Positions 8,010 through 51,678 of a stretch of DNA of 64,000 nt are shown piece after piece. The DNA is taken from positions 32,001-96,000 of the forward strand of contig CBDHEC010000024.1 in NCBI GenBank assembly GCA_965261975.1, read 5' to 3'. The notes beneath the pieces were generated by a model, which had not been told where the DNA came from, ran no database searches, and saw only the letters and a list, made by a program, of their open reading frames with translations. Source of the stretch: Alphaproteobacteria bacterium. Lineage in GTDB: Bacteria; Pseudomonadota; Alphaproteobacteria; UBA6615. The translations under genes and the position numbers were made by a program. Position 1 is the first letter of the stretch. The number at the start of each line of letters is the position of its first letter.

Positions 8010-8011
8010 AC

Positions 8012-8039: not shown

Positions 8040-8094
8040 CCCGCGGTCAGCGTGGAAATCGAACTTTTTTTGCCGCCGGCAACCCGGTCCGTTA

Positions 8095-8121: not shown

Positions 8122-8220
8122 TGCCTTGTTGTTAAACGTTTTTGTTGCCGATGCGGCTGTCCCTCGGGATAATTCTGATCACCTGGCGATTCGGTTTGTT
8201 CAACCATTGAGGTGTCAGCG

Positions 8221-8487: not shown

Positions 8488-8502
8488 GTATCTCGCCCCG
8501 GT

Positions 8503-9216: not shown

Positions 9217-9974
9217 GTCACCGCCTCGTCGGCATCGAAACTGCCGAGATAGACGGCCTGCACTTTCTCATCCGCGCGAATTTCGTCCGGGCGACCCTCC
9301 GCGATCACCTGGCCCCGGTCGAGAACGATCACCCGGTCCGCATGGCCAAACACGACGTCCATGTCATGTTCGGTGAAAAGCACCGCCACGCCACGCTCCG
9401 CAACCATCAAGTCCACCAAATCCATCATCCCGCCGCGCGCGTCGGCCGCCATGCCCGCCGTGGGCTCGTCCATCAACAGCAGCGAGGGCTGGTTGGTCAT
9501 CGCCACGGCGAGCTCCAGTCGCTTGAGATCGCCATAGGGCAGTTCCACCGTCGCATCGCCGCCACGGGCCGCGAGCCCGACCAGCTCGACCAGCTCCCCG
9601 GCCTCGTCCAGATACCGGTCGCCCAGCCGCCGCAGGAGACCGGTCGCCGCCCCATCGGCTGACGCAAGTGCCACCTGAATATTCTCGACAACCGTCATGC
9701 TGGAGAATGTTGCGGTGATCTGGAAGGTGCGGCCGACACCATGGCGCCAGATCCGGTGCGGCGCATGGCCTGTAACGTCGCGCCCGGAGATATGTATCCG
9801 GCCCTCGTCGGGCGGCAACTGGCCATTGATGCAATTGAACAGGGTCGTTTTGCCCGCACCGTTGGGCCCGATCAACGCGACCCGCTCCCCCTGGCCCACC
9901 GTAAAGGATACGCCGCCGACCGCCTGCACGCCGCCAAACGCCTTGGAAAGTCGTTCGATCTGCAGAACGCTCAT
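9213..9974 (-). CDS. Branched-chain amino acid-type ABC transporter ATPase (LivG-like)
   Basis: GPNGAGKTT, RTFQI, LPYGDLKRLE, LMDEPTAGM, EHDMD; start at ATG 9974 overlapping the upstream stop. Confidence 0.93.
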   Translation of the reverse strand: MSVLQIERLSKAFGGVQAVGGVSFTVGQGERVALIGPNGAGKTTLFNCINGQLPPDEGRIHISGRDVTGHAPHRIWRHGVGRTFQITATFSSMTVVENIQVALASADGAATGLLRRLGDRYLDEAGELVELVGLAARGGDATVELPYGDLKRLELAVAMTNQPSLLLMDEPTAGMAADARGGMMDLVDLMVAERGVAVLFTEHDMDVVFGHADRVIVLDRGQVIAEGRPDEIRADEKVQAVYLGSFDADEAVT

Positions 9975-16662: not shown

Positions 16663-16663
16663 A

Positions 16664-33091: not shown

Positions 33092-33895
33092 TCACCCGTC
33101 TGCCTCATCCGTCAGCGCGACGGCGAAATCGGCCATCACCTGCAACACGCCCTCGGTCGCATCACGGTGCGGCGTGTGACCGCAGTCGGGCACCATCACG
33201 GCGTCGACCGGGCCCGCAGATTGTCGTCCGATGGCCGCGGGTTGGGCTTCGGTCCCGTATTCGTCGTCGACGCCCTGGATGACAAGGGTCGGACAGCCGA
33301 TCGCCGGCAGATACTCCTCGATGTTCCAGTCGCGAAAGGCCGGGCTGAGCCAGATGTCGTTCCAGCCCCAGAAGGTCTTGTCGCCGTCGGTGTGGCGGCG
33401 CGCGATGCGCGCCGGGAGATCGGTGGTCTCGTAGGCCGTCTTCGCATCCTCGATGCCGGCGATGCTCGCATCCTCGACGAAGAAATGCGGCGCCTCGAGG
33501 ATCAGGCCGCGCACGGGCCATTGCCCGGCCCCGGCGTGGATCGCCGCAATCGAACCGCCGTCGCTGTGACCCACCAGGATCACATCATCGAGATCGAGGG
33601 CGTCGCGGATCACCGGCAACGCCTCCAGGGCCTCGTGATGCATGTAGTCCACGCCGCGCGGCGCCTCCAGCACATCCGAGCCGCCATAGCCGTAGCGGGA
33701 ATAGACCAGCGCGGGCAGGCCGGTTGCCGCCGTGACCAAGGCCGGGAAATCCCGCCACAGACCGGCCGATCCCAGCCCTTCATGGAGGAAGATCAGCGCC
33801 GGGCTCTCGCCGTCATGTTCGGCCGTCCAGTAATATTCGAGGCAGCGTCCCGCTGCGGTCAGGTGCTGCATGTCCGGGATGGCGGCAATCGACAT
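33092..33895 (-). CDS. Alpha/beta hydrolase of the type found next to box genes
   Basis: LHEGLGS, GHSDGGS nucleophile elbow, QG.DDEYGT, CGHTPH; divergent from boxC. Confidence 0.88.
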   Translation of the reverse strand: MSIAAIPDMQHLTAAGRCLEYYWTAEHDGESPALIFLHEGLGSAGLWRDFPALVTAATGLPALVYSRYGYGGSDVLEAPRGVDYMHHEALEALPVIRDALDLDDVILVGHSDGGSIAAIHAGAGQWPVRGLILEAPHFFVEDASIAGIEDAKTAYETTDLPARIARRHTDGDKTFWGWNDIWLSPAFRDWNIEEYLPAIGCPTLVIQGVDDEYGTEAQPAAIGRQSAGPVDAVMVPDCGHTPHRDATEGVLQVMADFAVALTDEADG

Positions 33896-34008
33896 CGCCA
33901 AGTTCCTTTCGGGTCTCGCCAATTCGTTGGATATACCGACTATTGGGTTCACAAAGTGATGGGCTTGGATTACTGTTCTAGCGGCAAACAGGAGGGGAAA
34001 GCGATCCC

Positions 34009-35664
34009 ATGATCGCCTTTGAAACACACCCGGAACGCTACCGGCACTGGCAGCTTTCGATCGACGGGCGGGTTGCGACCCTCACCCTCGCCGTGGACGA
34101 GGCCGGCGGGCTGGCGCCGGGCTATGAGCTCAAGCTCAACTCCTATGATCTGGGTGTCGATATCGAGTTGTATGATGCCATTCAACGCTTGCGTTTCGAA
34201 CACCCGGAAGTGGCCGCGGTGGTGGTCACCTCGGCCATGGACCGGGTGTTCTGCGCCGGGGCCAACATCCCCATGCTCAAGGCCTCCAGCCACGACCATA
34301 AGGTGAATTTCTGCAAGTTCACCAACGAGACCCGCAACGCCATCGAGGATGCGAGCGAAAACTCCGGCCAGGCCTATATCTGCATGGTCAACGGCACGGC
34401 CGCGGGCGGCGGCTATGAACTCGCGTTGGCCTGCGACGAAATTTTGCTGGTCGACGACGGGTCGAGCGCGGTCTCCCTGCCGGAGGTGCCCCTGCTGGCG
34501 GTGCTGCCGGGCACCGGCGGGCTGACCCGGGTGGTGGACAAGCGCCATGTGCGCCGCGACCGGGCGGATTTCTTCTGTACCACCGGCGAGGGCCTGCGTG
34601 GCAAGCGCGCGCTCGAATGGAAGCTCGTCGACGCACTGGTGCCCCGCTCGAAACTCGAAGAAACACTCGCCGCGCGAACTGCCGAACGTACAGATACCTC
34701 GGACCGCCCGGCGGACGGCGCGGGCGTGGAACTTACCGCGCTCACGCGAGATATTTCCGATGCCGAGCTCACCTACCCCAACCTCACGGTCGCGCTGGAC
34801 CGGGAGACACGCACCGCGACCTTCACGGTGCGCGCGCCCGAAAACGCCCCGCCCGAAGACATCGACGGCATTCACGCGGCGGGCGTGGGGTTCTGGCCCC
34901 TGGCGATCGCCCGCGAGCTCGATGACGCGATCCTGCATCTGCGGTTCAACGAGACCGAAATCGGCACCTGGGTGTTCCGCACCGAGGGCGACGGCGAACT
35001 TGTCGCGGCCCATGACGCCGCGCTGCTGGAACACGCCGACGACTGGCTGATCCGCGAGATCACGCTTTATCTGCGACGCACCCTCAAGCGCATCGACGTG
35101 TCCGCCCGCTCCCTGCTGGCGCTGATCGAGCCCGGCTCATGTTTCACCGGCACGTTGCTGGAGCTCGCGCTCGCCGCCGACCGGTCCTACATGCTCGACG
35201 GTGCGTTCGAGGAAGACGGCTCGAACCTGCCGCCCGCAACCATCGCGCTGACCGGCATGAACACCGGTCCGCTGAAGATGTGCACGGGCCTCACCCGGCT
35301 GCAAACACGTTTCTACGGCGACGACGACGCCCTGGCCGCCGTCGAGGCCGAAATCGGCACCGCGCTGGAGGCGGTCGACGCCGAGGCGCTCGGCCTGGTC
35401 ACCTTCGCGCCCGACGACATCGACTGGGAGGACGAGGTTCGCCTGGCCATCGAGGCCCGCGCCGCCTTCTCGCCCGACGCGCTGACGGGCATGGAAGCAA
35501 GCCTGCGCTTCCCCGGGCCCGAGACCATCGAGAGCAAGATTTTCGCGCGCCTGAGCGCGTGGCAGAACTGGATATTCCAACGTCCCAACGCCGTGGGTGA
35601 CAGCGGCGCGCTGGAGCTCTTCGGCACCGGCAAACAACCCGAATATGACCGCAGGCGGGTGTGA
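34009..35664 (+). CDS. boxC: 2,3-epoxybenzoyl-CoA dihydrolase (benzoyl-CoA-dihydrodiol lyase)
   Basis: YRHW, YELKLNSYDLGVDIELYDA.QRLRFEHP, HKVNFCKFTNETRN, RLSAWQNWIFQRPNA. Confidence 0.96.
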   Translation: MIAFETHPERYRHWQLSIDGRVATLTLAVDEAGGLAPGYELKLNSYDLGVDIELYDAIQRLRFEHPEVAAVVVTSAMDRVFCAGANIPMLKASSHDHKVNFCKFTNETRNAIEDASENSGQAYICMVNGTAAGGGYELALACDEILLVDDGSSAVSLPEVPLLAVLPGTGGLTRVVDKRHVRRDRADFFCTTGEGLRGKRALEWKLVDALVPRSKLEETLAARTAERTDTSDRPADGAGVELTALTRDISDAELTYPNLTVALDRETRTATFTVRAPENAPPEDIDGIHAAGVGFWPLAIARELDDAILHLRFNETEIGTWVFRTEGDGELVAAHDAALLEHADDWLIREITLYLRRTLKRIDVSARSLLALIEPGSCFTGTLLELALAADRSYMLDGAFEEDGSNLPPATIALTGMNTGPLKMCTGLTRLQTRFYGDDDALAAVEAEIGTALEAVDAEALGLVTFAPDDIDWEDEVRLAIEARAAFSPDALTGMEASLRFPGPETIESKIFARLSAWQNWIFQRPNAVGDSGALELFGTGKQPEYDRRRV

Positions 35665-35668
35665 GACC

Positions 35669-37087
35669 ATGAAAGCCAACTACAACGAAATGATCCCCAA
35701 CAACGTCAACCTCGGCGACGACCGCCGTCTGTTGCGCGCGCTGGAACGCTGGCACCCGGCCTATATCCAGTGGTGGAAGGACATGGGGCCGGTCGAATCC
35801 ACCGACTTCGATGTCTATCTGCGCACCGCCATCAGCGTCGACACCGACGGCTGGGCCATTTTCGATCATGTGAAGATGCCCGACTATCGCTGGGGCATCT
35901 TCCTCGCCGAACCCGGCCCCGAGCGGAAGATCGCCTTCGGCGCCCACAAGGACGAACCGGTCTGGACCGAAGTGCCGGGCGAGTACCGCACCGAGCTGCG
36001 CCGCCTGATCGTTACCCAGGGGGACACCGAGCCCGCCTCGGTGGAGCAGCAACGCCAGCTGGGCCGGACCGCGCCGTCGCTGTATGACCTGCGCAATCTC
36101 TATCAGGTGAACGTCGAGGAAGGCCGCCATCTGTGGGCCATGGTCTATCTGCTGCATGCCTATTTCGGGCGCGACGGACGCGAGGAGGCCGACGAGATGC
36201 TCGAGCGCCACGCGGGCGACCCGGACCGGCCGCGGATCCTCCAGGCCTTCAACGAGCAGACCGACGACTGGCTGTCGTTCTTCATGTTTACCTATTTCCA
36301 GGACCGGGACGGCAAGTTCCAGCTGGCCGCGCTCGCCGAGTCCGGCTTCGACCCGCTGTCGCGGACCTGCCGCTTCATGCTGACGGAAGAGGCCCACCAC
36401 ATGTTCGTGGGCGAGACCGGCGTGATGCGTGTCCTGCAGCGGACCTGCGAGCTGATGCGCGAGCATGACACAGAGGATGTGCGCCCCTTCGGCGGCATCA
36501 ACCTCGACACCATCCAGAAATGGATCAACTTCCACTATTCGATCTGCCTGGATCTGTTCGGCTCGGAACGCTCGACCAATGCCGCGAACTACTTCTCCAT
36601 GGGCCTCAAGGGGCGCTACCAGGAGACGAAACTCGACGACGACCACAAGCTCGACGGCGAACAGATGGAAATCGCGAAGGTGACCGAGGACGGCGACATC
36701 GACAGCGAGACCATCTCGGCGCTGACGGCGATGAACCTGAAGCTGCGCCAGGACTACACCACCGACAGCCAGCGCGGGCTCAACCGCTTCAACAAGATGA
36801 TCGCCGCCCATGACGTCGACGTCAAACTCACCCTGCCCGATGAGAAGTTCAACCGCTCGATCGGCATCTATTCGGCCATCGAGGCGACCCCGGAGGGCGA
36901 GCTCATCTCGGCCGAGGAATGGTCCAATCGCAAGGCGGCATGGCTGCCGACGGACGAAGACAAGGCCTATGTGAATTCGTTGATGGTGCCCGTCACCGAG
37001 CCGGGCAAGATGGCCAGCTGGATCGCGCCGCCCAAGCGCGGCATCCACGGCCGGCCCATCGACTTTGAGTATGTGCTGTTTCACTGA
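35669..37087 (+). CDS. boxB: Benzoyl-CoA 2,3-epoxidase di-iron subunit
   Basis: IPNNVNL, VKMPDYRWGIFL, QGDTEPASVEQQ, NVEEGRHLWAM, DRDGKFQL, EEAHHMFVG. Confidence 0.96.
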   Translation: MKANYNEMIPNNVNLGDDRRLLRALERWHPAYIQWWKDMGPVESTDFDVYLRTAISVDTDGWAIFDHVKMPDYRWGIFLAEPGPERKIAFGAHKDEPVWTEVPGEYRTELRRLIVTQGDTEPASVEQQRQLGRTAPSLYDLRNLYQVNVEEGRHLWAMVYLLHAYFGRDGREEADEMLERHAGDPDRPRILQAFNEQTDDWLSFFMFTYFQDRDGKFQLAALAESGFDPLSRTCRFMLTEEAHHMFVGETGVMRVLQRTCELMREHDTEDVRPFGGINLDTIQKWINFHYSICLDLFGSERSTNAANYFSMGLKGRYQETKLDDDHKLDGEQMEIAKVTEDGDIDSETISALTAMNLKLRQDYTTDSQRGLNRFNKMIAAHDVDVKLTLPDEKFNRSIGIYSAIEATPEGELISAEEWSNRKAAWLPTDEDKAYVNSLMVPVTEPGKMASWIAPPKRGIHGRPIDFEYVLFH

Positions 37088-37098
37088 GCGGTGATGCC

Positions 37099-38666
37099 AT
37101 GACCAACAACACCGTCACCGTCGACATGTCGACCAGCCCCGCGACCCTCACCTATGCGGACCGGTTCAACGTGGCCGTGCCTTTCATCGACCGGCATCTG
37201 GCCGAGGGCCGGGGCGAGAAGGTGGCGATCCGGAACGACGACGGCGACACGACCTACGCCGCACTGGCCGAGGCGGTAAACCGGGCGGGCAATGCGCTGG
37301 CCGACCTGGGCCTCGCGCAAGGCGACCGGGTGATCCTGGCCATCAAGGACAGTCCCGCCTTCTTCTTCGCCTTCTGGGGCGCGATCAAGGCGGGCTTCGT
37401 GCCCGTGCCCGTGAACACGCTGCTGCGCGCGGGCGACCACCAGTTCATCATCGAGGATTCGGGTGCCGCCTGCGTGATCTGGTCGCCGGAATTCGCCGAG
37501 ACCATGCAGCCGGCAATCGCCGCGGCGGCCCCGGCCCATAACTTCCCGACCGAGGGCGCCGACGACAGCCTCGCCGCGCGCATGGCCGCGGCCTCATCCG
37601 AACTTGAGGCCGCCCCCGCCACAGCCGATGCCGACTGCTTCTGGCTCTACACGTCCGGTTCCACCGGCACGCCCAAGGGCGCTGTCCATGCCCACCGGGA
37701 CATGGTGGTGACCAGCCAGTATTACGGGGTCGAGACCCTGGGCATCACGGCCGACGACATTCATTTCTCCGCCGCCAAGCTGTTCTTCGCTTACGGGCTC
37801 GGCAATGCCATGACCATGCCGCTGTGGACCGGCGGCCAGGCGGTGCTGTTCGCCGGGCGGCCGACGCCGGACATCATGGCCGACCATATCGAACGCTACC
37901 GCCCGACGCTCTATTACGCGGTGCCCACCCTGTTCGCCGCCCAGCTCCACGCACTCGAGGCGGGCGACGCGGACTTCTCGAGCCTGCGGGCGTGTGTCTC
38001 GGCGGGCGAGCCCCTGCCCGCCACGTTGTTCGAACGCTGGCGCGACCAGACCGGCCTCACCATCCTCGACGGGATCGGCACGACGGAGATCCTGCACATC
38101 TTCATCGGCAACGGCCCCGACGATGCCAAGGCGGGGACCAGCGGCAAACTGGTGCCCGGCTACGAGGCGCGGATCGTCGACGACGCGGACCAACCCGTCG
38201 CCACGGGCGAGATCGGCAACCTGCTGATCCGGGGCGATTCCGTGACCTCGCGCTACTGGAACCAGCCCGAGCGCACGGCCGCGGCCATCACCGACGGCTG
38301 GATCCGCACCGGCGATTCCTACTCGCTCGACGACGACGGCTACTTCACCTGCCAGGGGCGCAGCGACGACATGCTCAAGGTGGGCGGCATCTGGGTCTCG
38401 CCGGTGGAGATCGAGGCGCGGCTGGTCGCCCATGACGCGGTGCTGGAAGCCGCGGTCATCGGCCGGCCCGACGACGAGGAACTGATCAAGCCCGAGGCGT
38501 TTGTGATTTTGAAGGATGCCGGCGACGCGTCGGACACGCTCGCGGAAGACCTCAAGACCTTCTGCCAGGAAGAGCTCGCTCGCTACAAGTACCCGCGCTG
38601 GGTGCATTTCGTGGACGAGCTGCCGAAGACCGCGACGGGGAAAATCCAGCGGTTCAAGCTAAGGGG

Positions 38667-38670
<4 letters not shown>
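37099..38670 (+). CDS. bclA: Benzoate--CoA ligase family protein
   Basis: WLYTSGSTGTPKG, AAKLFFAYGLGN, SAGE.LP, DGIGTTEILHIF, PKTATGKIQRF. Confidence 0.9.
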
Positions 38671-39367
<697 letters not shown>

Positions 39368-39368
<1 letters not shown>

Positions 39369-40144
39369 CAGCCCGCCTCCTCGCTTGCGTCATCGCCGAG
39401 ATAGGCCGCGCGCACCGACGCGTCGTTGCGAATTTCTTCCGGCGTGCCCGTGGCGATCGCCTTGCCATACACCAGCACGGTGATCCGGTCGGCGAGCGCA
39501 AACACCGCATCCATATCGTGCTCGACCAAGAGCATCGTGTAGTCGCCCTTCAGCGCCTTGAGGAAGTCGATCATCCCCTGGCTCTCCTCGGGCCCCATTC
39601 CCGCCATGGGTTCGTCGAGGAGCAGGAAGGTCGGGTTGGTCGCCAGCGAGATCGCGATCTCGAGCTGGCGTTGCTCACCATGGGCGAGGTTGCCGGCGGT
39701 CACGTCCATCCGGTCAGCCAGGCCGACACGCTCGAGGAGGTCCCGCGCGGGCCCGCGCAGGCTCTCGTCGCGCGCGGCGGGCCGCCAGAAGCGGAAGCTA
39801 TGCCCCTGCCCGGCCTGGACGGAAAGCATGACATTCTCCAGCACCGTGAAGTCGCGGAAGATGCTGGTGATCTGAAACGACCGGGCCAGGCCCTGGTTTA
39901 CCCGGGCGGGGGCCGACAGGCGGGTGATATCGCGGCCCTCGAACAGGATTTCGCCCCCGTCGGGCTTCATGATGCCCGAGAGGAGATTGACGAACGTCGT
40001 CTTGCCGGCGCCGTTGGGACCGATGACCGCATGGATCTCGCCGCGGGTGGCCTCCAGCGACAGGTTGTCGGTCGCGACCAGGCCGCCGAAGCTCTTCTGC
40101 AGGCCGCGGGCCTCCAGGCTTATGCTCGCGCGCGCATCATTCAT
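39368..40144 (-). CDS. ABC transporter ATPase (LivG-like)
   Basis: GPNGAGKTT, RSFQITS, LLDEPMAGM, EHDMD. Confidence 0.92.
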
Positions 40145-41093
40145 CGCGGGATGACCTCGGCGTCAGCAGCCCGTGGATGCCGCCGCGCGCGAACAGCACG
40201 ACCAGCACCAGGAACGGCCCGAAGATGATGTGCCAGTGGATCGTCCAGGTGGACAGGATCTCCGACAGCATGAGGAAGACGAAGGCCCCCGTGACCGGGC
40301 CGAACAGGGTCGACATGCCGCCCAGCACCACCATGAAGATGAGCTCGCCCGAGCGCGGCCAGTTCATCATGTCGGGCGAGACGAAACGCTCGAAATTGGC
40401 CTGCAGCAGCCCGGCAATGCCGCACATCACCCCGGCGATGACGAAGGCGGTGAGGCGGTATCGGTAGGTCGAGACACCGACCGCCTGGACGCGCGTGTCG
40501 TTGGATTTCGCCGCCCGCATGACCACGCCGAAGCGGGAATGGATAATCTTCCAGCTGATGAACACGCTCGCCACCAGGAACGCGAAGATCGTGTAGTACA
40601 TGGTCAGCTTGTCGTTCAGATCGAAGAAGCCGAGCCCGAAGTCGCTGCGCGAGAGAATGTTCAGCCCGTCGTCGCTGCCGTAGCGCTCCGCGCTGACGCT
40701 CAGGAAGAAGATCATCTGGGCGAGCGCAAGCGTAATCATGATGAAATAGACACCGCGGGTCCGCAGGCTGATCGCGCCGAAGATGAGCGAGATCATGGCG
40801 CAAAGCCCGATGGCCACCGGCCACTGGATCCACGCACTGGTGATGCCATGGAAGGCGAGGATGCCGATCGTGTAGCCGCCGATCCCCAGATAGACCGCAT
40901 GACCGAAGCTGATCATGCCGCCATAGCCCATGATCAGGTTGAGGCTGACCGCCGCAATCGCCCAGATCATGATCCGCGCGAAGACGATGACATAGAAGGG
41001 CTCGCCCAGCGCGGGTGCGAGGAAGGGCACGACCGCGAACAGGGCGATCACGATGACGGTCAGGATGTTCGCCGGGTTTTTCAGGTTCTCCAT
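40137..41093 (-). CDS. ABC transporter permease (LivM-like)
   Basis: GYGGMISFGHA, YFIMITLALAQ, VLGGM. Confidence 0.92.
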   Translation of the reverse strand: MENLKNPANILTVIVIALFAVVPFLAPALGEPFYVIVFARIMIWAIAAVSLNLIMGYGGMISFGHAVYLGIGGYTIGILAFHGITSAWIQWPVAIGLCAMISLIFGAISLRTRGVYFIMITLALAQMIFFLSVSAERYGSDDGLNILSRSDFGLGFFDLNDKLTMYYTIFAFLVASVFISWKIIHSRFGVVMRAAKSNDTRVQAVGVSTYRYRLTAFVIAGVMCGIAGLLQANFERFVSPDMMNWPRSGELIFMVVLGGMSTLFGPVTGAFVFLMLSEILSTWTIHWHIIFGPFLVLVVLFARGGIHGLLTPRSSRDE

Positions 41094-41098
41094 GGCCC

Positions 41099-42022
41099 CT
41101 ACCCCGCGCCCTTGGGCGGGAAAAGGCCCTGGGGCCTGAAGAACAGGATCGCGGCCATCAGGATGTAGATCATCATCGATGACAGGGCCGGCCCGGCGGA
41201 TTCCGCCGCGTTTTCCGGCAGGAACAGCAGCAGGAACACGTCGAGGAATGACCGCCCCATCGTGTCGATCACGCCGGTGACGATGGAGGCGATGAAGGCG
41301 CCGCGGATCGAGCCGATGCCGCCGATCACGATCACCACGAAGGCAAGAATGAGTACATCCTCACCCATGCCGATCTGGGCCGCGGTGATGGGGGTGATGA
41401 TCAACCCGGCGAGGCCGGCCAGCACGGCGCCGATGCCGAAGACGATGGAGAACAGCAGCGGGATGTTGACGCCCAGCGCGCCCGCCATGGTGCGGTTCGA
41501 CGCACCCGCGCGGATCAGCATGCCGATCCGGGTGCGGGATACGAGGATATAGAGGCCCAGCGCGACCAGCAGGCCGATGACGATGATGACGATCCGGTAG
41601 ACCGGATAGGTGATCGCGCCCAATGCGACCGAGCCATCGAGGAATGCCGGCAACGGCACGACGAGGCCCTCCGGGCCCCAGATCAGGCGGGTCGCCTCGT
41701 TGAAAAACAGAATGAGACCGAAGGTGGCCAGCACATGGTCGAGATGATCACGCGGATAGAGCGTCCGCAGGGTAGTCATCTCGACGACGATGCCGATGAT
41801 CAGCATGGCCGGGATCATCACGATCACGCCGATGATGAAGGAGCCGGTGAGCAGGGCGATGGAGCCACCGACGAAGGCGCCGATCATGAACATCGACCCG
41901 TGGGCCAGGTTCACCAGGTCCATGATCCCGAACACCAGGGTCAGCCCTGCCGCCATCAGGAACAGGATGATCCCGAGCTGAAACCCGTTCAGGAATTGTT
42001 CGGTGAGGAGGACGTAATCCAT
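41099..42022 (-). CDS. ABC transporter permease (LivH-like)
   Basis: GLTLVFGIMD.VNLAHG, VIVIGGIGSIRGA. Confidence 0.92.
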   Translation of the reverse strand: MDYVLLTEQFLNGFQLGIILFLMAAGLTLVFGIMDLVNLAHGSMFMIGAFVGGSIALLTGSFIIGVIVMIPAMLIIGIVVEMTTLRTLYPRDHLDHVLATFGLILFFNEATRLIWGPEGLVVPLPAFLDGSVALGAITYPVYRIVIIVIGLLVALGLYILVSRTRIGMLIRAGASNRTMAGALGVNIPLLFSIVFGIGAVLAGLAGLIITPITAAQIGMGEDVLILAFVVIVIGGIGSIRGAFIASIVTGVIDTMGRSFLDVFLLLFLPENAAESAGPALSSMMIYILMAAILFFRPQGLFPPKGAG

Positions 42023-42056
42023 CGCGCCCTAGCAGCTAACGGCAGCGGACATGCAA

Positions 42057-42080
42057 GCGGGGATGCCTACGCATCCCCGC
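42057..42080 (-). terminator. Intergenic hairpin after the substrate-binding protein gene (attenuating or stabilising stem)
   Basis: GCGGGGATGC-ctac-GCATCCCCGC, a perfect 10-bp stem between SBP and permease. Confidence 0.6.
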
Positions 42081-42105
42081 CCACAGGTTTCAGATAGCCG
42101 TGTGC

Positions 42106-43278
42106 CTACATCTTGCACTGGCTGGCATAGGGGTCCTGATGATCGGTCAGAACCGCACGGCCCACGGCGGTGGTCCAGTTGCCTTCGGCATCCTTGACCA
42201 CGGTTCGCTCGTAGAAGTTCTGGATGGGGAAGTGATTGTTGCCCATCTTGAAGTCACCGCGGATCGAATCGAAGTCTGCCTTCTTCAGCGCGGCGCGCAT
42301 CCCGTCGGTATTGCCGATATCGCCGCTCACGGCCTCGACCGCCGACTTGATGAACATGATCGAGTCGTAGCTCTGCGCGGCATAGAAGGACGGGTAACGC
42401 CCATACTTCTTGCGGAAGTCGCCAACGAACTTCTTGTTCGCCGCATTGTCCAGATCAGGTGCCCAGAACTGGGTCATCTTGGTGCCCAGCACGGTCTCCA
42501 TGCCGGCCTTCTGGAACAGCGGCAGGCTGATCGAATCCAGCGTGTAGACCGAGTAGAGCGGCACCTGGCCCTCGAGCCCCGCCTGCTGATACTGCTTGAT
42601 GAAGGCCGGTCCGGCCGGACCAGGATAGAAGGTGAAGACACCGTCCGGCTTGGCCGCCTTGACCTTGGACAGCTCGGCCGACCAGTCCCGCTGGGACGGC
42701 CAGACGGTCATGTCCTTGCCGACGACCTTGCCCTTGAAGGTGCGTTCGACGCCCGCGACCATGTTCTGGCCGGCGGCATAGTTCGGCGCGACCAGGTAGA
42801 GGGACTCGACCCCCTGCTGGTTGAGCAGTTCACCGAGCGCCATCGGGGTCTGGTCATTCTGCCAGGCGATGTTGAAGAAGTTCGCATTGCACTGCGCACC
42901 GGCGAGCGGCGACGGCCCCGCATTGGCGCTGATCAGGATCTTGTCGGCGTTGAGCACGACGGGTGCAGAGGCAAGCAACACGTTCGACCAGATGTAACCG
43001 GCGACGATGTCGACATCGTCGCGCAACACCAGGCGCTCGGTCGCTTGTTTGCCTTTCTGCGAATTGAACTCATCGTCAGCGTAGACGATCTCGACATCCT
43101 CGCCGGCCATCTTGCCACCGATATGTTCCATCGCCAGTTCGACGGCATCGCGCATGTCCTTGCCGATGACCGCCACGGGCGTCGTCAGCGTGGTCACGAA
43201 ACCGATCTTGATATCCGCAGCAGCCGGTGACGCCAGAAGCGTCAGGGCCGTGGCTGTTCCCAGTAATTTCTTGAGCAT
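42106..43278 (-). CDS. ABC substrate-binding protein, aromatic-acid-binding PBP1 subfamily
   Basis: Signal peptide, WSNVLLA, SANAGPS.LAG..C, WQNDQ, APNYAAG; context next to benzoate-CoA ligase. Confidence 0.85.
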   Translation of the reverse strand: MLKKLLGTATALTLLASPAAADIKIGFVTTLTTPVAVIGKDMRDAVELAMEHIGGKMAGEDVEIVYADDEFNSQKGKQATERLVLRDDVDIVAGYIWSNVLLASAPVVLNADKILISANAGPSPLAGAQCNANFFNIAWQNDQTPMALGELLNQQGVESLYLVAPNYAAGQNMVAGVERTFKGKVVGKDMTVWPSQRDWSAELSKVKAAKPDGVFTFYPGPAGPAFIKQYQQAGLEGQVPLYSVYTLDSISLPLFQKAGMETVLGTKMTQFWAPDLDNAANKKFVGDFRKKYGRYPSFYAAQSYDSIMFIKSAVEAVSGDIGNTDGMRAALKKADFDSIRGDFKMGNNHFPIQNFYERTVVKDAEGNWTTAVGRAVLTDHQDPYASQCKM

Positions 43279-43366
43279 TTTCAACTCCTCCCTAGAGATT
43301 TTCCCTATGAGACCATATCGCCCGACCGATGGAAAGCGCCGTGCGTGTCCGTCTTTCGGGGGAGTT

Positions 43367-43768
43367 CTATTTTTGCGGCAAAACCGCTGTCGCCTCGATC
43401 TCGACTCGCGCGCGATCTTCCACCAGCGCGGACACCTCGACGACCGACATGGCGGGGAAATGACGGCCCATGACCGACCGGTAGAACCCACCAACCCCCT
43501 TTGGGTTCTCCAGGTAAGCCTGCTTGTCGGTCACGAACCATGTCAGGCGGGTGATATGTTCGGGAAGGCCACCCGCCTCGGCCAGGACCGCGCGCACATT
43601 CTCCAGCGCCTGGCCGACCTGGGCGGCGAAATCGTCGGTCTCGAAGTGACCCGTCTCGGGGTTCCAGCCAATCTGGCCGCCGACAAATACGAGGCGCCCC
43701 GTCGCCGCCATGCCGTTGGCATAGCCTTTCGGCGGCACCCAGTTTTCCGGTTGAAGAATCTCGATCAT
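43367..43768 (-). CDS. RidA/YjgF family enamine/imine deaminase (abm-cluster type)
   Basis: LQPENW.PPKGYANG, GGQIGWN, G.HFPAMS...V.ALVE.RA.VEIEATA; start at ATG 43768. Confidence 0.9.
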   Translation of the reverse strand: MIEILQPENWVPPKGYANGMAATGRLVFVGGQIGWNPETGHFETDDFAAQVGQALENVRAVLAEAGGLPEHITRLTWFVTDKQAYLENPKGVGGFYRSVMGRHFPAMSVVEVSALVEDRARVEIEATAVLPQK

Positions 43769-43792
43769 CGCGCTTGATATTTCATCTCTATA

Positions 43793-43810
43793 TATTTTAA
43801 TTCTAAAATA
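43793..43810. promoter_or_regulatory. Palindromic operator in an AT-rich divergent promoter, probably bound by the MarR protein
   Basis: TATTTTA-attc-TAAAATA, a perfect 7-4-7 inverted repeat in a strongly AT-rich patch between ridA and the SDR-marR operon. Confidence 0.7.
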
Positions 43811-43836
43811 ATAATAGAGCGGAGCACAAGCGTAGG

Positions 43837-44616
43837 ATGACCACACCCCTGGACGGGAAACTGGCGATTGTTACCGGCGGCGGGCGCGGCATCGGCCGCG
43901 AAATCGCGCTGGCCCTCGCCAAGCGCGGCGCCAATATCGCGCTGCTCGGCCGTACCGAGCGCAGCCTCAAGGAGACCGCCGTCGAGATTCGCCTGCAGTC
44001 CGAGGTCTCGCCCCATGTGCATACGCTCGACGTCACCAACGGCGATGGTGTCGTGCAGACGTTCACGGAGCTGATCGCCGAACTGGGCCCACCCGCCATC
44101 CTGGTCAACAACGCGGGTGGTGCCGAGAGCACACCGTTCACGCGGCTCGACCGGGAAAGCTGGGACGGAGCATTGGCTCTCAACCTGACCAGCGTCTACG
44201 CCTGCACGCACGCGGTCCTCCCCGCCATGCTCGACGCAGGCTATGGGCGAATCATCAACATCGCATCGACCGCGGGGCTGGAAGGCTACCCCTATGTGGC
44301 CGCCTATTGCGCCGCCAAGCACGGTGTCGTCGGCCTGACCCGGTCGCTGGCGCTTGAAGTCGAGAACAAGGGAATTACCGTCAACGCCGTGTGCCCCGGC
44401 TATACGGACACCGAAATGCTGCAGGCGGCCATCCGCAAGATCGCCGCGACCACCGGCCGGTCCGAAGCCGACGCGCGCGACGAACTCGCGGCCGCCAACG
44501 CCGGCGGGCGCCTGGTCCAGCCGGGTGAAGTTGCGGAGATGGTCGCAGCCCTGTGCGGCCCGGCGGCGAAAACGGTGACAGGACAGGCGATTGAAATCAC
44601 CGGCGAGGATTCGTGA
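43837..44616 (+). CDS. SDR family oxidoreductase (3-hydroxyacyl-CoA dehydrogenase-like, abm-cluster type)
   Basis: TGGGRGIG, NNAG, ASTAGL.GYPYVAAYCAAKHG, NAVCPGYTDT. Confidence 0.9.
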   Translation: MTTPLDGKLAIVTGGGRGIGREIALALAKRGANIALLGRTERSLKETAVEIRLQSEVSPHVHTLDVTNGDGVVQTFTELIAELGPPAILVNNAGGAESTPFTRLDRESWDGALALNLTSVYACTHAVLPAMLDAGYGRIINIASTAGLEGYPYVAAYCAAKHGVVGLTRSLALEVENKGITVNAVCPGYTDTEMLQAAIRKIAATTGRSEADARDELAAANAGGRLVQPGEVAEMVAALCGPAAKTVTGQAIEITGEDS

Positions 44617-45110
44617 TGCCCGACGGCGTTCCTCAAGGTGATCTCGAGACAGGCCTGACGGCCGACGATCGGCTCGACCTGCGGACCTGGTTGCGCCTGA
44701 TGACCTGCACCAACATGATCGAGGGTGAAGTCCGCGCCCGGTTGCGCAGCCGTTTCGACATTTCAATCGCCCGCTTCGACTTGCTTGCCCAGCTCGACCG
44801 GGCGAATGGCGGCCTCACCATGGGCGAACTGTCGCGTCGCCTGATGGTCACCAACGGCAACGTCACATCGCTGATCGATCGCCTCGTCGAGGAGAAGATG
44901 GTCACCCGGCGCCCGGACCCGAACGACAGGCGGGCGCAGATCATCGAGCTCACGCCCGGCGGCGCACGGGCCTTCGCGAAGATGTCGGATGCCCATGCCG
45001 ACTGGATCAGCACGCTCTTCGAGGGTGTCGACCGGAGGAGCCTCGAAGCGCTCTATCGTAATCTCGCCCAGCTCAAGGCGTCCCTCGCCACCACCAACGA
45101 GGACAGCTGA
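44616..45110 (+). CDS. MarR family transcriptional regulator
   Basis: LRTWLRLMTC, RFDLLAQL, MGELSRRLMVTNGNVT, DRRA. Confidence 0.93.
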   Translation: MPDGVPQGDLETGLTADDRLDLRTWLRLMTCTNMIEGEVRARLRSRFDISIARFDLLAQLDRANGGLTMGELSRRLMVTNGNVTSLIDRLVEEKMVTRRPDPNDRRAQIIELTPGGARAFAKMSDAHADWISTLFEGVDRRSLEALYRNLAQLKASLATTNEDS

Positions 45111-45112
45111 TC

Positions 45113-46573
45113 ATGTGGCGCCCGCCCGAACGTATCCGCTGGGAGCCCGACCCCGGGGAATGGCCGGCCGCAGACGAAGCCGGCGCCGCGATGCTGTTCC
45201 AGCCGGTTGATATCGGCCCCATCGCGCTGGATTCCCGCACCTGGGTCCCCGCCATGGTGCCATGGCGGGCAACCGGCGAGGGCGAGGTGACCGACAATGT
45301 GCTCGACTGGTATGGCCGCTTCGCGCGCGGGCGCCCCGGCGCCATCGTCGTCGAAGCGACGGGCATCCGGGATATTCCCTCGGGGCCGCTGTTGCGGATC
45401 GGAGATGATCGCTACATTCCCGGACTGACCAGGCTCGCCGAGACCGTCCGCCGGGAGAGCGACGGCCACACGAAGCTGTTTATCCAGCTGATCGACTTCC
45501 TCGCCGTCCGCCGCCGCCCCGACCCGGCAAAATATTTCGAGCGATTCCTCGCGATCACCGACCGGCACCGCGATGCATTGAATGCAAGTGACTGGCCCGA
45601 AGAGACAATCCGCACCCACCTGGCGGGCCTGCCCGAGGACGAGCTCGCCGATGTGCTCACCCCGCGCGAACGCGAATCCCTGCACCAGGGCTACCGCGAG
45701 CGGGTGACCGATACCGACCTGCCCCAGATCGCCGAATTGCCCTTCGTCCTGCCCGGGCTGTTCGCCGATGCCGCCCGGCGCGCGCGCGAGGCCGGGTTCG
45801 ACGGGGTCGAGCTGCATTACGCCCACGCCTACACCATGGCCTCGTTCCTCTCGGCCCTGAACACCCGCGCGGACGGCTATGGCGGATCGCGCGAGAACCG
45901 CGCGCGGCTGCCGCTCGAGGTGTATGCCGCCGTGCGCGCCGCCGTGGGCGAGGATTACGTGGTCGGCACGCGGTTTCTGGCCGAAGACTGCATCGACGGC
46001 GGCAACGAGGTCGTGGATGCCGCCTATTTCGGGTCGGCGTTTGCGCGCGCCGGCTTCGATGTGCTGTCGCTATCGCGCGGCGGCAAGTTCGAGGATGCCA
46101 AGCGGCCGGCGGTGGGCCAGGCGGCCTATCCCTACACGGGCCCCAGCGGATACGAGTGCATGCCGCAATATATCTCCGACGCGCGGGGGCCGTTTGGCCG
46201 AAACATCGAGCCCGTGTCGGCGATCCGCAAGGCGGTGCGCGACGCGGGCTGCGGTACGCCGGTGGTCCTGACCGGCGGCATCCACGGGTTCCGCCAGGCC
46301 GAGGATATCCTGCAGGCGGACCAGGCCGATATCATCGGCTTCGCCCGCCAGAGCCTCGCCGACCCGGACTGGTTCCGGAAGGTCCGCGGCGGTCATGGCG
46401 GGGCGGTCCGGGTGTGTGAGTACACGAACTACTGCGAGGCACTGGACCAGAAGCATGTGCCCGTCACCTGCCAGCTGTGGGACCGGAAAAACCTGGACGA
46501 ACCCGGCATCGCCAAGACGGAAGACGGCAAGCGGCGGTTGGTCGCCCCCGAATGGGAGCCGAACGACAGCTAG
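45113..46573 (+). CDS. NADH:flavin oxidoreductase (old yellow enzyme family), standalone
   Basis: PAMVPW, VVEATG, AGFDGVELHYAHAY...FLS..N.R.DGYGGSRENR, GFARQSLADPDW, C-terminal CEYTNYC-x11-C. Confidence 0.88.
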   Translation: MWRPPERIRWEPDPGEWPAADEAGAAMLFQPVDIGPIALDSRTWVPAMVPWRATGEGEVTDNVLDWYGRFARGRPGAIVVEATGIRDIPSGPLLRIGDDRYIPGLTRLAETVRRESDGHTKLFIQLIDFLAVRRRPDPAKYFERFLAITDRHRDALNASDWPEETIRTHLAGLPEDELADVLTPRERESLHQGYRERVTDTDLPQIAELPFVLPGLFADAARRAREAGFDGVELHYAHAYTMASFLSALNTRADGYGGSRENRARLPLEVYAAVRAAVGEDYVVGTRFLAEDCIDGGNEVVDAAYFGSAFARAGFDVLSLSRGGKFEDAKRPAVGQAAYPYTGPSGYECMPQYISDARGPFGRNIEPVSAIRKAVRDAGCGTPVVLTGGIHGFRQAEDILQADQADIIGFARQSLADPDWFRKVRGGHGGAVRVCEYTNYCEALDQKHVPVTCQLWDRKNLDEPGIAKTEDGKRRLVAPEWEPNDS

Positions 46574-48663
46574 CGGGTGAAGCTGCCGCCCTCGGCTACC
46601 AGACGCTCCAGCAGGGGCGACGGGGCCCAGAGTTTGCCGTGAACCTTCTCGAACGCCTTGATCTGGTCGAGAATCTCGCCCAACCCGATCTCATCGGCCA
46701 TGAACATGATGCCGCCGCGCCAGCGCGGGAAGGCGAAGCCGTAGAGCCACATCACATCGATGTCCGAGGCGCGGCTGGCGATACCCTCGTCGAGAATCTT
46801 GGCCCCCTCGTTGATCGCCGCGTACAGACAGCGCGCGCGGATCTCGTCGTCGGAGATATCCCGGCGTGCGATGCCCTGCTCCTTCGCCACGGCCGCCGCG
46901 ACGCCCTCGACCTCCGGGTCGGGCTGCGGCCGCCGCCCGCCCTCTTCATAGGCATACCAGCCCTGCCCGGCCTTGATGCCGAATCGGCCGAGCTCGCACA
47001 TCCGGTCGGCCAGATGCATGTAGCGCGCATCCGGATCGCGTTGATCGGCGAGGGACTGGCGCATCCGCCAGCTCACATCGAGGCCTGACAGGTCGCTCAC
47101 CGCGAGCGGGCCCATGGGCATGCCCAGATCGGTCAGTACCTTGTCCACCTGGGCCGGTGACGCCCCCTCCTCGACCAGGAACGTGGCTTCCCGGACCAGC
47201 GGAAGACGCGAGCGGTTGGCGACGAAGCCATGGCAGACGCCCGCCAGCACGCCGACCTTGCCGGTGCGCTTGGCCAGCGCCATCCCCGTGGCGATGGCGT
47301 CGGGCGCACAGTTCGCCGGGCGCACCACCTCGAGCATGCGCATCACGTTGGCGGGTGCGAAGTAATGCAGGCCGATGATGTCTTCGGGCCGCGACGTGGC
47401 CGCCGCGATGGCATCGATATCCATATACGACGTGTTGGTGGCGAGGATCGCACCGGGCTTGGCGACTTTCTCCAGGGCACCGAAAATCTGCTTCTTCACG
47501 TCCATATCCTCGAACGCGACCTCGATGACGAGGTCGGCGTCCGACAGGGCGCCATAGTCCAGCGCACCGGAAATGCGTCCGAGGCGTTCGTCCTTCGTGG
47601 CCGTGTCGATCCGGCCCCGCGCCACCATCGCCTCGTAGAGCTTCGCGATCTCGGCCAAAGCCGCATCCAGCGCCTCCTGGCCGGTCTCGACGATGGTCAC
47701 GGGGAGGCCCGAATCCGCCAGGCTGATGGCGATGCCGCGGCCCATGGTGCCCGCGCCGATCACGCCTGCACTGTCGATCGGACGCGGGGCAACATCCTTG
47801 CCGATGTCGGGAATCTTCGCCGCCTCGCGCTCGGCGAAGAAGGCGTAGCGCAGGGCTGCCGACTGGCCACTCGTCTTGCAGGCCTCGAACCGCACACGGT
47901 CCGCCGCCACCGCATCCGGGTACGGCATGCGCAGCCCGTCGATGACGCTCTCGATGGCCTGATGGGGCGAATCCTGGCCGCGAAAGCGACGGTTGGCGAG
48001 GTCGCGATATTTCTCGATGGTCTCGGCATGTTCCTCCGGCGAGCCGATCCCGTTTTGCGGTTCGCTGGAGATTTGGCGCGGCGTGCCGTCGGACAGGATC
48101 TTCTCGGCAAACGCGACGGCTCCGTCGCGCAGATCGCCTTCGATGATTTCGTCGATGATCCCGTATTCGAGCGCCTTGGCGGCCCCGACGGGTTTTCCCA
48201 GAACGATCAGCTCGAGCGCGTGGTCCAGCCCGGCCACCCGCGGCAGGCGCTGTGTCCCGGCCGCTCCGGGAAATATCCCGAGATTGACCTCGGGCGTGCC
48301 GACCCGCGCGCTCGAAGACGCGACGCGGAAATGACAACCCAGGGCCAGCTCCAGCCCGCCGCCGAGCGCGGTCCCGTGGATCGCGGCGACGATGGGTTTC
48401 TCGATGTCGTCGAGCCGGTCGATCACCGTCATCAGATGGGGTTCGCGCGCCGGCTGGTCGAACTCTCGGATGTCCGCGCCGGCGGGAAACGTGCGCCCCG
48501 CGCCGATCAACACGATGGCCTCGACGGATGCATCGGCAACCGCACGTTCCATCCCGGCGACGATACCCTCGCGCACCGCGTGACCCAGCGCGTTGACCGG
48601 CGGGTTGTCGATGGTCAGGACAGCGACCCGTCCCGCGATCTCATAGCTCACAACGTCACTCAT
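46570..48663 (-). CDS. Bifunctional enoyl-CoA hydratase / 3-hydroxyacyl-CoA dehydrogenase (FadB-like)
   Basis: NPPVNAL, AGADI, GGGLE, PEV, GAGTMG, NTS, GLHYFAP. Confidence 0.93.
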   Translation of the reverse strand: MSDVVSYEIAGRVAVLTIDNPPVNALGHAVREGIVAGMERAVADASVEAIVLIGAGRTFPAGADIREFDQPAREPHLMTVIDRLDDIEKPIVAAIHGTALGGGLELALGCHFRVASSSARVGTPEVNLGIFPGAAGTQRLPRVAGLDHALELIVLGKPVGAAKALEYGIIDEIIEGDLRDGAVAFAEKILSDGTPRQISSEPQNGIGSPEEHAETIEKYRDLANRRFRGQDSPHQAIESVIDGLRMPYPDAVAADRVRFEACKTSGQSAALRYAFFAEREAAKIPDIGKDVAPRPIDSAGVIGAGTMGRGIAISLADSGLPVTIVETGQEALDAALAEIAKLYEAMVARGRIDTATKDERLGRISGALDYGALSDADLVIEVAFEDMDVKKQIFGALEKVAKPGAILATNTSYMDIDAIAAATSRPEDIIGLHYFAPANVMRMLEVVRPANCAPDAIATGMALAKRTGKVGVLAGVCHGFVANRSRLPLVREATFLVEEGASPAQVDKVLTDLGMPMGPLAVSDLSGLDVSWRMRQSLADQRDPDARYMHLADRMCELGRFGIKAGQGWYAYEEGGRRPQPDPEVEGVAAAVAKEQGIARRDISDDEIRARCLYAAINEGAKILDEGIASRASDIDVMWLYGFAFPRWRGGIMFMADEIGLGEILDQIKAFEKVHGKLWAPSPLLERLVAEGGSFTR

Positions 48664-48780
48664 ATCCGTCCCCTGATTCCCGCATACGCCTGTGCTAATT
48701 CTGTGGTCTAATTTCATTCCAGGCGGCAGTGACCAATATGATGCGCAGACCCGCGCGGCCGGTCAAACGGAGCAAGAAAA

Positions 48781-51577: not shown

Positions 51578-51678
51578 GGCGGGCATTCCGGGATGGGGTG
51601 GGAGAAGCGGTTTCGCCCATGATACCTTTTCCGGCCCCTTCCTCACAGATCACGTTCGCACTGACTGGGTTGCAATAA

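Follow-up and report, generated by a model that had tools for sequence, protein, structure and literature searches.

The interval 33092-46573 of the window (the whole 64,000-nucleotide stretch of DNA that was analysed, from an uncultured marine alphaproteobacterium whose own genome is 94.6% complete) probably holds two separable CoA-dependent aromatic-acid modules lying side by side, the second of them a remnant of a neighbouring abm-type cluster; we put the probability of this reading at roughly 0.65. The locus comprises an alpha/beta-hydrolase gene and boxC-boxB-benzoate-CoA ligase, followed by five convergent genes for an aromatic-acid ABC importer, by ridA, and by the SDR-marR-OYE operon, which diverges from ridA. 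The first module would be a box core in its usual alphaproteobacterial form, in which the importer would bring in benzoate or a close analogue, the ligase would convert it to benzoyl-CoA, BoxB would epoxidise the ring and BoxC would then open it, with electrons for BoxB supplied by some donor other than BoxA and the alpha/beta-hydrolase serving as a conserved companion. The second, the cassette ridA // SDR-marR-OYE485, presumably under MarR control, would be the residue of a 2-aminobenzoyl-CoA (abm-type) cluster and may now handle some enamine- or enone-type metabolite independently of BoxB. The first-pass annotation had read the interval as a possible hybrid pathway. In the two-module reading, this hybrid look arises because a lineage-wide lack of boxA coincides with the loss of part of the adjacent abm cluster, two unrelated facts, and the earlier interpretation as a whole is partly supported. 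The features of the locus, with coordinates and strand, are listed below.

33092..34027, minus strand: alpha/beta-hydrolase (Pfam Abhydrolase_1/6), divergent from boxC, start codon uncertain
34009..35664, plus strand: boxC (TIGR03222 equivalog, 911 bits, cut-off 712)
35597..37087, plus strand: open reading frame of boxB, diiron benzoyl-CoA 2,3-epoxidase component (TIGR03225 equivalog, 797 bits, cut-off 499)
37099..38670, plus strand: benzoate-CoA ligase family gene (TIGR02262, 608 bits, cut-off 375), substrate predicted
38667-39368 and 39368-40144, minus strand: two ABC ATPases of a liv/urt-type importer (Pfam ABC_tran)
40137-41093 and 41099-42022, minus strand: two ABC permeases of the liv/urt-type importer (Pfam BPD_transp_2)
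42106..43278, minus strand: periplasmic substrate-binding protein (SBP), 390 aa with signal peptide (Peripla_BP_6, 258 bits)
43279..43366, minus strand: conserved 5' region in front of the ABC operon, of which some 80 bp ahead of the SBP start are also kept in G001, G005 and G006, which lack the cassette
43367..43769, minus strand: ridA (Rid/YjgF family, 134 aa; Ribonuc_L-PSP, 83 bits), first gene of the abm-type cassette
43770..43836, no strand: AT-rich promoter/operator region between the divergent genes, containing nested inverted repeats (TATTTTA-N4-TAAAATA at 43793-43810; CTCTAT...ATAGAG at 43786-43819)
43837..44616, plus strand: SDR oxidoreductase (adh_short, 200 bits)
44613..45110, plus strand: MarR-family regulator (MarR_2 and MarR)
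45113..46573, plus strand: OYE485, a 486-aa Old-Yellow-Enzyme-type flavoprotein (Oxidored_FMN in three stretches)
46570..48717, minus strand: FadB/FadJ-like hydratase/dehydrogenase (Pfam ECH_1 and 3HCDH), the right flank of the cassette and outside it

Profile matches confirmed the gene content and order given by the first-pass annotation, with every gene it named present; the interval also includes the alpha/beta-hydrolase, and the longest open reading frames that had been used were too long for the SBP, which starts at 43278 as supported by a GGGAGGAG ribosome site and the signal peptide, and for ridA, which starts at 43769. The TIGR03225 profile begins at residue 28 of the boxB reading frame, so that a start near 35678 is likely. 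BoxB matched Azoarcus BoxB (PDB 3PER) with 675 bits over residues 1-468, and the best solved relatives of the SBP were 4EVQ/4EVR, 4EY3 and 4F06. The liv-type ABC operon (38667-43278, minus strand) lies tail-to-tail with the benzoate-CoA ligase gene, the stop codons of the ligase and ABC_F overlapping, and its ATPases and permeases are kept with the box genes in relatives both with and without the cassette. The alpha/beta-hydrolase gene adjoins boxC in G001, G003, G005, G006, G008, G009, G010, G012, G016, G017 and G022 and belongs to the conserved box core of the window's family.

With respect to the box module, the passages of PMC4498308 and PMC10803450 that outline the pathway in Azoarcus/Aromatoleum evansii and Burkholderiales list BoxA, BoxB, BoxC, BoxD and a benzoate-CoA ligase. 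The window resembles these systems in its equivalog-level BoxB and BoxC with an adjoining benzoate-CoA ligase and aromatic-acid ABC importer, and differs from them in the hydrolase gene beside boxC and in several missing components. No BoxA was found in the window's own genome (best TIGR03224 match 29.5 bits, cut-off 459) or, at E<=1e-20, in any of 41 relatives, 22 of which have a BoxB above cut-off. No aldehyde dehydrogenase, of BoxD type or other, lies in the locus; genome-wide, the Aldedh model gave only three matches at E<=1e-30, one of them SSADH-like below its cut-off and another MMSDH. A BoxR-type regulator was not seen. Among 201 Alphaproteobacteria genomes (the class sample) BoxB occurred in 40 and BoxA in 6, such that only 6 of the 40 BoxB-bearing genomes carry BoxA; all 6 of these BoxA genes adjoin boxB, which served as the positive control for the search. 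BoxB without BoxA is thus the norm across the class and is independent of OYE485. This result speaks against the proposal that the two halves of the locus complete one another.

The same sample bears on whether OYE485 is the missing reductase, taking over from BoxA as the electron supplier of BoxB, a role for which the lack of a detectable boxA in the genome leaves room. The protein is encoded by a separate gene, as had been described, but it differs from generic OYEs: some 100 extra residues are inserted between residues ~125 and 215, and a Cys motif lies at the C-terminus, which set it apart as a distinct type. Its best PDB matches were thermophilic-type OYEs (115 bits, in split stretches), and its relatives number more than 8000, with 71-91% identity among the best 120. 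It shares the FMN TIM barrel of 2,4-dienoyl-CoA reductase (1PS9), trimethylamine dehydrogenase (1DJQ) and histamine dehydrogenase (3K30), and its C-terminus aligns with their four-Cys [4Fe-4S] motif, Cys 1, 3 and 4 being kept and position 2 being Thr, a partial motif for a putative cluster. Unlike these enzymes of 671-729 aa, OYE485 ends at residue 486 without C-terminal ADP/NAD(P)H-binding domains, and Pfam finds Oxidored_FMN only, with no NAD(P)H/FAD domain; with its FMN barrel and partial Fe-S motif, the protein could take part in an electron chain. The distribution nevertheless disfavours this role and makes it extremely improbable. OYE485 was found in only 4 of 34 BoxA-less BoxB genomes, being missing from the other 30, it was present in 2 of the 6 BoxA-bearing genomes, and it is absent from congeners with intact box genes.

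As for abmA, an AbmA-type gene occurred in all 7 other OYE485 genomes of the class sample, adjacent to the OYE gene in G121 and G196. G000 is the sole one of the 8 OYE485 genomes without such a gene, and the window's genus is therefore unusual rather than ordinary. BoxB was found together with OYE485 in 6 of these 8 genomes versus 34 of 193 elsewhere, an association for which the co-occurrence of AbmA and BoxB (BoxB in 22 of 33 AbmA genomes) can account. At the level of gene neighbourhoods, 80 OYE485 loci from elsewhere included 14 with an AbmA-type hydroxylase, 8 with a Rieske-type ring oxygenase, 19 with a RidA-like gene, 17 with an abm-type ECH, 22 with an SDR and 18 with marR, while boxB lay within 10 kb in 2, both of which share the window's own arrangement. 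OYE485 accordingly accompanies abm genes, not box genes, and its orthologues beyond the window's family show no linkage to boxB.

The original abm cluster, for aerobic 2-aminobenzoate metabolism, is that of Azoarcus. AbmA (ACMR) is a 2-aminobenzoyl-CoA monooxygenase/reductase whose product is described in passages of PMC3534580; the profile used here, NF006101 (cut-off 1078 bits), is named in NCBIfam salicylyl-CoA 5-hydroxylase/oxidoreductase. A fused hydroxylase/OYE gene of 747-801 aa lies beside the RidA/SDR/MarR/OYE set in L071, L114, G019 and G015, three of the four passing the cut-off and that of L114 reaching 1040 bits, which upholds the earlier description of RidA, SDR and MarR as an accessory set of AbmA-type clusters and adds OYE485 to it. 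ECH, ACAD and a CoA ligase accompany the fused gene in L114 and G015; in L071 ECH and ACAD are present and a ligase was not found, and in G019 the ligase is present and ECH and ACAD were not found within the fetched stretch. The RidA, SDR, MarR and OYE485 of the window are orthologous to the AbmA-flanking genes of these four loci; its ridA is 44-65% identical to the ridA beside OYE485 in other loci and its SDR shares 44-54% identity with those encoded in abm-type loci. In sister genera the ridA//(SDR-)marR-OYE block is continued by genes for a second CoA ligase and AbmA and still lies beside the box and ABC genes, with the orders abmA-ligase2-OYE485-marR-SDR // ridA...SBP-ABC...ligase-boxB-boxC in G019 and boxC-boxB / ABC / ridA // marR-ECH-ACAD-OYE-ligase2-abmA in G015. 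Judged from these gene orders, the adjacency of box and abm genes is probably ancestral.

Unlike these clusters, the locus has neither AbmA, a dedicated ligase, ECH nor ACAD, and the genome as a whole lacks them too. As had been noted for the window, abmA is missing, as is boxA, and neither reached its cut-off in the whole genome; a search of 12 genus genomes likewise found no abmA. The best match to the second ligase of G019 and G015 was the window's own benzoate-type ligase (38-39% identity), and orthologues of the abm ECH and ACAD are absent, the best matches being 35% and 39% identical, respectively. The first-pass annotation had named canonical boxA and abmA elsewhere, together with a lack of conserved OYE-box linkage, as the sign of two unrelated fragments; only the latter was found, there being no such linkage beyond the synteny of one family.

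The best NF006101 matches in the genome were two unlinked single-domain genes, one on contig C41 that covers the N-terminal half (412 bits) and one on C47 that covers the C-terminal half (362 bits). The function of AbmA could be split in trans, with the 375-aa FAD monooxygenase encoded on C41 hydroxylating 2-aminobenzoyl-CoA made by the window's ligase and OYE485, RidA and SDR continuing from there. The C41 protein matches NF006101 positions 1-382 and shares 44-45% identity with AbmA over its N-terminal half, and L125 provides a precedent, having a stand-alone hydroxylase beside OYE485, ECH, ACAD and ridA. However, the C41 gene also occurs in G001, G006 and G009, which lack the cassette, it lies between a BKACE gene and a DNA ligase gene rather than among aromatic-acid genes, and neither an abm-type ECH nor such an ACAD was found in the genome; we regard this arrangement as unlikely, if the least so of the alternatives to two separable modules.

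The cassette measures 3.2 kb (43367-46573) and lies 6.3 kb from boxB. It is kept in 8 of the 12 genus genomes and gone from 4, and several further genera within the family have lost it as well. In G001, G005 and G006, three of the genus genomes without it, the SBP and fadB-like genes are immediate neighbours and the box, ligase and ABC genes are intact, and the fourth genome has no OYE in its assembly; these losses may represent one or two events only. The left boundary is clean, coming straight after the stop codon of ridA, and the region upstream of the SBP gene is kept even where the cassette is missing.

These observations also bear on a functional hybrid, in which, after loss of abmA and its ligase, the benzoate-type ligase with BoxB and BoxC would act on 2-amino- or 2-hydroxybenzoyl-CoA, and OYE485, RidA and SDR would reduce, deaminate and oxidise the product. 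The proximity to boxB, the retention of the cassette under purifying selection without AbmA, and the occurrence of OYE485 beside several kinds of ring oxygenase are consistent with such a scheme. On the other side, BoxB and BoxC are canonical equivalogs (dN/dS 0.05-0.17) with no sign in their sequences of altered function, their conservation is just as strong in congeners without the cassette and in abmA-bearing sister genera, and the ABC operon, with its own conserved 5' region, separates the two modules; together with the distribution of OYE485 described above, this makes the hybrid quite unlikely. Slightly less probable again is the specific case of a cassette rewired, after loss of abmA and its ligase, to act together with the benzoate-type ligase, BoxB and BoxC on an ortho-substituted benzoate such as anthranilate, which if true would constitute a diiron-based, AbmA-independent aminobenzoyl-CoA route.

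Finally, the cassette could be an inert relic in which decay has not yet begun, as its patchy loss and the absence of the usual pathway partners might suggest. All four open reading frames are intact, however, and within the abmA-less genus, at dS reaching about 1.0, dN/dS was 0.12-0.13 for OYE, 0.03-0.11 for ridA, 0.14-0.18 for SDR and 0.16-0.25 for marR, values similar to those of the box genes; for dS of 0.4-1.6 among abmA-less congeners, the overall range was about 0.03-0.25. Because the cassette is not decaying, it would have a function without AbmA, a point that counts against the two-module reading as it stands, and an inert relic is very improbable. The inverted repeats at 43770-43836, presumed to be a MarR site, are likewise conserved, their core being found in G008, G010 and the abmA-bearing G019.

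Genes of the locus were identified from an ORF listing together with profile searches of the window, and the gene list of the first-pass annotation was borne out. The box core and the 3.2-kb cassette beside it, ridA // SDR-marR-OYE485 (43367-46573; // marks divergence), are composed as follows.

33092-34027 (- strand): alpha/beta-hydrolase gene
34009-35664: boxC (TIGR03222, 911 bits)
35597-37087: boxB (TIGR03225, 797 bits; 675 bits to the Azoarcus BoxB structure 3PER)
37099-38670: gene of the benzoate-CoA ligase family (TIGR02262, 608 bits)
38667-43278 (- strand): five-gene liv-type ABC importer, convergent with the box genes
43367-43769 (- strand): ridA
43837-44616: SDR gene, divergent from ridA
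44613-45110: marR, divergent from ridA
45113-46573: OYE485, encoding a 486-aa OYE-type flavoprotein, divergent from ridA

From a reading of the DNA, the start of the gene for the importer's binding protein (SBP) was corrected to 43278 and that of ridA to 43769. The SBP gene is preceded by GGGAGGAG and its product carries a signal peptide; its closest solved relatives were 4EVQ, 4EY3 and 4F06, which appear under generic names only in the structure table and which we take to be Rhodopseudomonas binding proteins for benzoate derivatives. The spacer between ridA and the SDR gene (67 bp, AT-rich) contains nested inverted repeats, TATTTTA-N4-TAAAATA and CTCTAT...ATAGAG, the core of which was kept in three relatives (G008, G010 and G019); judged by its sequence, this repeat is a putative MarR site. 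No reductase or ferredoxin gene adjoining the box genes was found in the 64-kb window. The only ferredoxin-linked enzyme seen there was a 2-oxoacid:ferredoxin oxidoreductase encoded by two genes (POR plus POR_N, then TPP_enzyme_C; 14794-17689, + strand). These genes precede the box genes by some 17 kb and lie close to another liv-type ABC transporter (8503-11812, - strand). A 356-aa ORF without family match (51643-52713, - strand) lies opposite a gamma-glutamyltranspeptidase gene (51679-53301, + strand, 458 bits) and is probably a shadow of it.

The first-pass annotation had also reported boxA and abmA as missing. This stands for the assembly that contains the window, which has 59 contigs and is 94.6% complete, as the best BoxA match in a profile search was weak (29.5 bits versus a cut-off of 459) and the best matches to NF006101, the family of AbmA, the fused FAD monooxygenase/OYE reductase of 2-aminobenzoyl-CoA (abm) clusters, were two unlinked single-domain genes. 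One, on contig C41, encodes a 375-aa FAD monooxygenase (412 bits to NF006101 positions 1-382), and the other, on C47, encodes a 386-aa NamA-like OYE (362 bits to the C-terminal half); genes of the C47 type also matched ordinary NamA-type OYEs in control genomes. No aromatic-acid genes were found around either, and the C41 monooxygenase gene lies directly 3' of a BKACE-family gene (G000:C41:7363-9412, locus L044). For the ECH, ACAD and second ligase (ligase2) of abm clusters, the genome had no orthologues. A half-length aldehyde-dehydrogenase match was seen within a 3709-aa open frame (G000:C3:100140-100793).

When the window genome was taken together with the 40 genomes closest to it, BoxB scored over the cut-off in 22 of 41 genomes and BoxA was found in none at E<=1e-20. 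The search was extended to 201 genomes drawn evenly from the class, which the source labels of close homologues give as Alphaproteobacteria; in each genome only the 8 top candidates from a first look were scored, and BoxB was called at E<=1e-50. BoxB was present in 40 (38 over the cut-off) and BoxA in 6, in every case directly adjoining boxB; recovery of these six served as a positive control for the BoxA search. Thirty-four of the 40 BoxB genomes had no BoxA, so that judging the box pathway incomplete from its marker genes would mislead for BoxB-bearing Alphaproteobacteria, at least in this sample. Absence of BoxA is thus a trait of the lineage. Our literature search returned nothing treating BoxA-less box clusters in Alphaproteobacteria; single clusters without BoxA are noted for Burkholderiaceae in a section of PMC10803450.

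Orthologues of OYE485 (full-length, E<=1e-100) were present in 8 of the 201 class genomes. They occurred in 4 of the 34 BoxA-less BoxB genomes (G000, the window's own, G074, G097 and G121), in 2 of the 6 BoxA-bearing genomes (G096 and G196), and without BoxB in two more (G030 and G145); on this distribution, OYE485 was rejected as a substitute for BoxA. Beyond the window's family, OYE485 and boxB lay on separate contigs or 1.8 Mb apart. An AbmA-type gene was found in 33 of the 201 genomes, including all seven OYE485 genomes besides the window's own, and adjoined the OYE gene in G121 and G196. As 22 of the 33 AbmA genomes also carried BoxB, the association of the OYE with BoxB at genome level can be explained by the co-occurrence of AbmA and BoxB. 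The expectation that OYE485 would be tied to boxBC and avoid boxA and abmA was not supported.

Database searches returned more than 8000 relatives of OYE485 of like length (the best 120 being 71-91% identical) and at least 571 OYE485 loci in species genomes, the best 80 of which were searched with the window's proteins and those of two well-assembled loci. Among these 80, boxB lay within 10 kb in two (L049 and L052), both with the window's arrangement, and an AbmA-type hydroxylase within 10 kb in 14 (11 fused, 2 cut by the locus end and 1 stand-alone). Also nearby were genes for SDR (22), ridA-like (19), marR (18), abm-type ECH (17) and ACAD (19, a count that takes in weak matches of 28-35% identity); about half of the 80 loci had no searched partner. 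When neighbours in the same 80 loci were clustered de novo, no partner common to all emerged, and the most widespread cluster covered 13 loci.

The recognition of an abm-type accessory set lacking AbmA was correct, as ridA, SDR, marR and OYE485 also occur near an AbmA-type gene in L071 (Iodidimonas muriae), L114 (a Woeseiaceae MAG) and G019, a genome from a sister genus within the window's family. In L071 and L114 these four genes, with ACAD and ECH, adjoin a gene for a FAD_binding_3 plus Oxidored_FMN protein (Pfam/NCBIfam) of 769 or 801 aa; its NF006101 score was 1316 bits in L071 and 1040 bits in L114, with the cut-off at 1078. L071 has in addition a gene of class-V aminotransferase fold that weakly matched the kynureninase C-terminal family (PF22580, E 5.6e-08) and whose sole NCBIfam match was SufS-type and under cut-off, and L114 has genes for a CoA ligase and a member of the cyclase family.

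The full arrangement was retained in two sister genera of the window's family, with the following gene orders.

G019: abmA (1148 bits) - ligase2 - OYE485 (76%) - marR - SDR // ridA - two extra genes - SBP...ABC - aldo-keto reductase - ligase - boxB - boxC
G015: boxC - boxB / ABC / ridA // marR - ECH - ACAD - more distant OYE (46%) - ligase2 - abmA

In both genomes ligase2 is borderline for membership in the benzoate-CoA ligase family, with scores of 377 and 366 bits versus a cut-off of 375. In the G019 locus, genes for DUF1428, an HpcH/HpaI-type lyase and an aldo-keto reductase lie between the modules (L026, 7813-9053 and 13802-14827). Direct contact of abmA with boxA-boxB was also seen in a genome from a different family of the class (G067:C1:346394-352582), so adjacency of box and abm genes recurs beyond the window's family.

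Within the window's genus, abmA was found in none of 12 genomes and OYE485 in eight; the four cassette loci read (G000, G003, G008 and G010) all had the full four genes. In G001, G005 and G006 the SBP gene directly adjoins a fadB-like gene, with hydrolase, boxC, boxB, ligase and ABC genes intact; in G009 the assembly has no OYE485 and the contig stops at the ligase. The edge of the cassette was clean, with homology to the cassette-less genomes restarting a few bases past the ridA stop. The 88-bp spacer upstream of the SBP gene was kept in genomes without the cassette, with about 80 bp conserved in all of them, and a role for ridA as promoter-proximal gene of the ABC operon was thus not supported; a consensus scan for promoters and terminators there gave nothing for or against. 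In a tree built on the genes common to 14 loci, from which G002, G004, G007 and G011 were omitted for want of a suitable stretch, the cassette-less genomes were nested inside the genus, with G001, G006 and G009 in one clade and G005 weakly placed, so the cassette may have been lost in only one or two events.

The proposal that the two halves complement each other was not supported, given that BoxA is lacking lineage-wide, that boxB lies near OYE485 in so few of the best 80 loci and that cassette-less congeners keep their box genes intact. The locus most likely pairs a box module that lacks BoxA, as is usual in Alphaproteobacteria, with the remains of an adjoining abm cluster that selection has kept, and its hybrid look would arise from a lineage-wide trait combined with partial gene loss. 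For annotation this is a caution: missing key enzymes side by side suggested a hybrid pathway, and comparative genomics explains them otherwise.

With respect to the OYE485 protein, thermophilic-type OYEs matched the FMN barrel in split stretches only (best 115 bits), and no NAD(P)H domain was present. Its last 157 residues align with the segment that binds the Fe-S cluster in histamine dehydrogenase, trimethylamine dehydrogenase and 2,4-dienoyl-CoA reductase, with the cysteines at positions 1, 3 and 4 kept but Thr at position 2. A Rieske oxygenase gene preceded OYE485 in 8 of the best 80 loci; five of the eight also had methylamine/aromatic-amine dehydrogenase-like genes (both names from Pfam on cluster representatives only). 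In L067, L068, L072, L074 and L119 (about 6700-11500 in each; gammaproteobacterial MAGs), genes resembling those for the heavy and light chains of such a dehydrogenase are followed by the Rieske ring-hydroxylating oxygenase gene and then directly by OYE485, which gives this OYE a second context, free of AbmA. Thirteen of the same 80 loci (L050, L086, L092, L093, L106, L108, L110, L112, L114, L115, L117, L123 and others) had an indolepyruvate:ferredoxin-oxidoreductase-like pair (TPP_enzyme_C; POR plus DUF6537) no more than 10 kb from OYE485, which hints at a link to indole- or tryptophan-derived acids. OYE485 is very widespread and travels with ring oxygenases of the AbmA and Rieske types. For an unresolved step in the CoA-dependent anthranilate pathway it is a concrete candidate; according to a passage in PMC9007349, a 2022 curation effort omitted this pathway because knowledge was lacking.

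For the window genome against G008, G010 and G003, dN/dS (Nei-Gojobori, own script; dS of the compared pairs about 0.3 to 1.6) was 0.12-0.13 for OYE485, 0.03-0.11 for ridA, 0.14-0.18 for SDR and 0.16-0.25 for marR, and 0.05-0.20 for boxB, boxC and the ligase gene. With these low ratios and all four genes intact, the cassette is under purifying selection in a genus without AbmA. This retention is the one feature that the remnant reading does not account for, and the genus offers a natural experiment on accessory enzymes acting alone. The stand-alone C41 monooxygenase could in principle supply a hydroxylase for the cassette. Co-variation of the C41 and C47 genes with the cassette was rejected, as both were present in 9 of 10 genus genomes tested, cassette or not; in G005 (82% complete) only the C47-type OYE half was seen, and the C41-type monooxygenase was retained in the cassette-less G001, G006 and G009.
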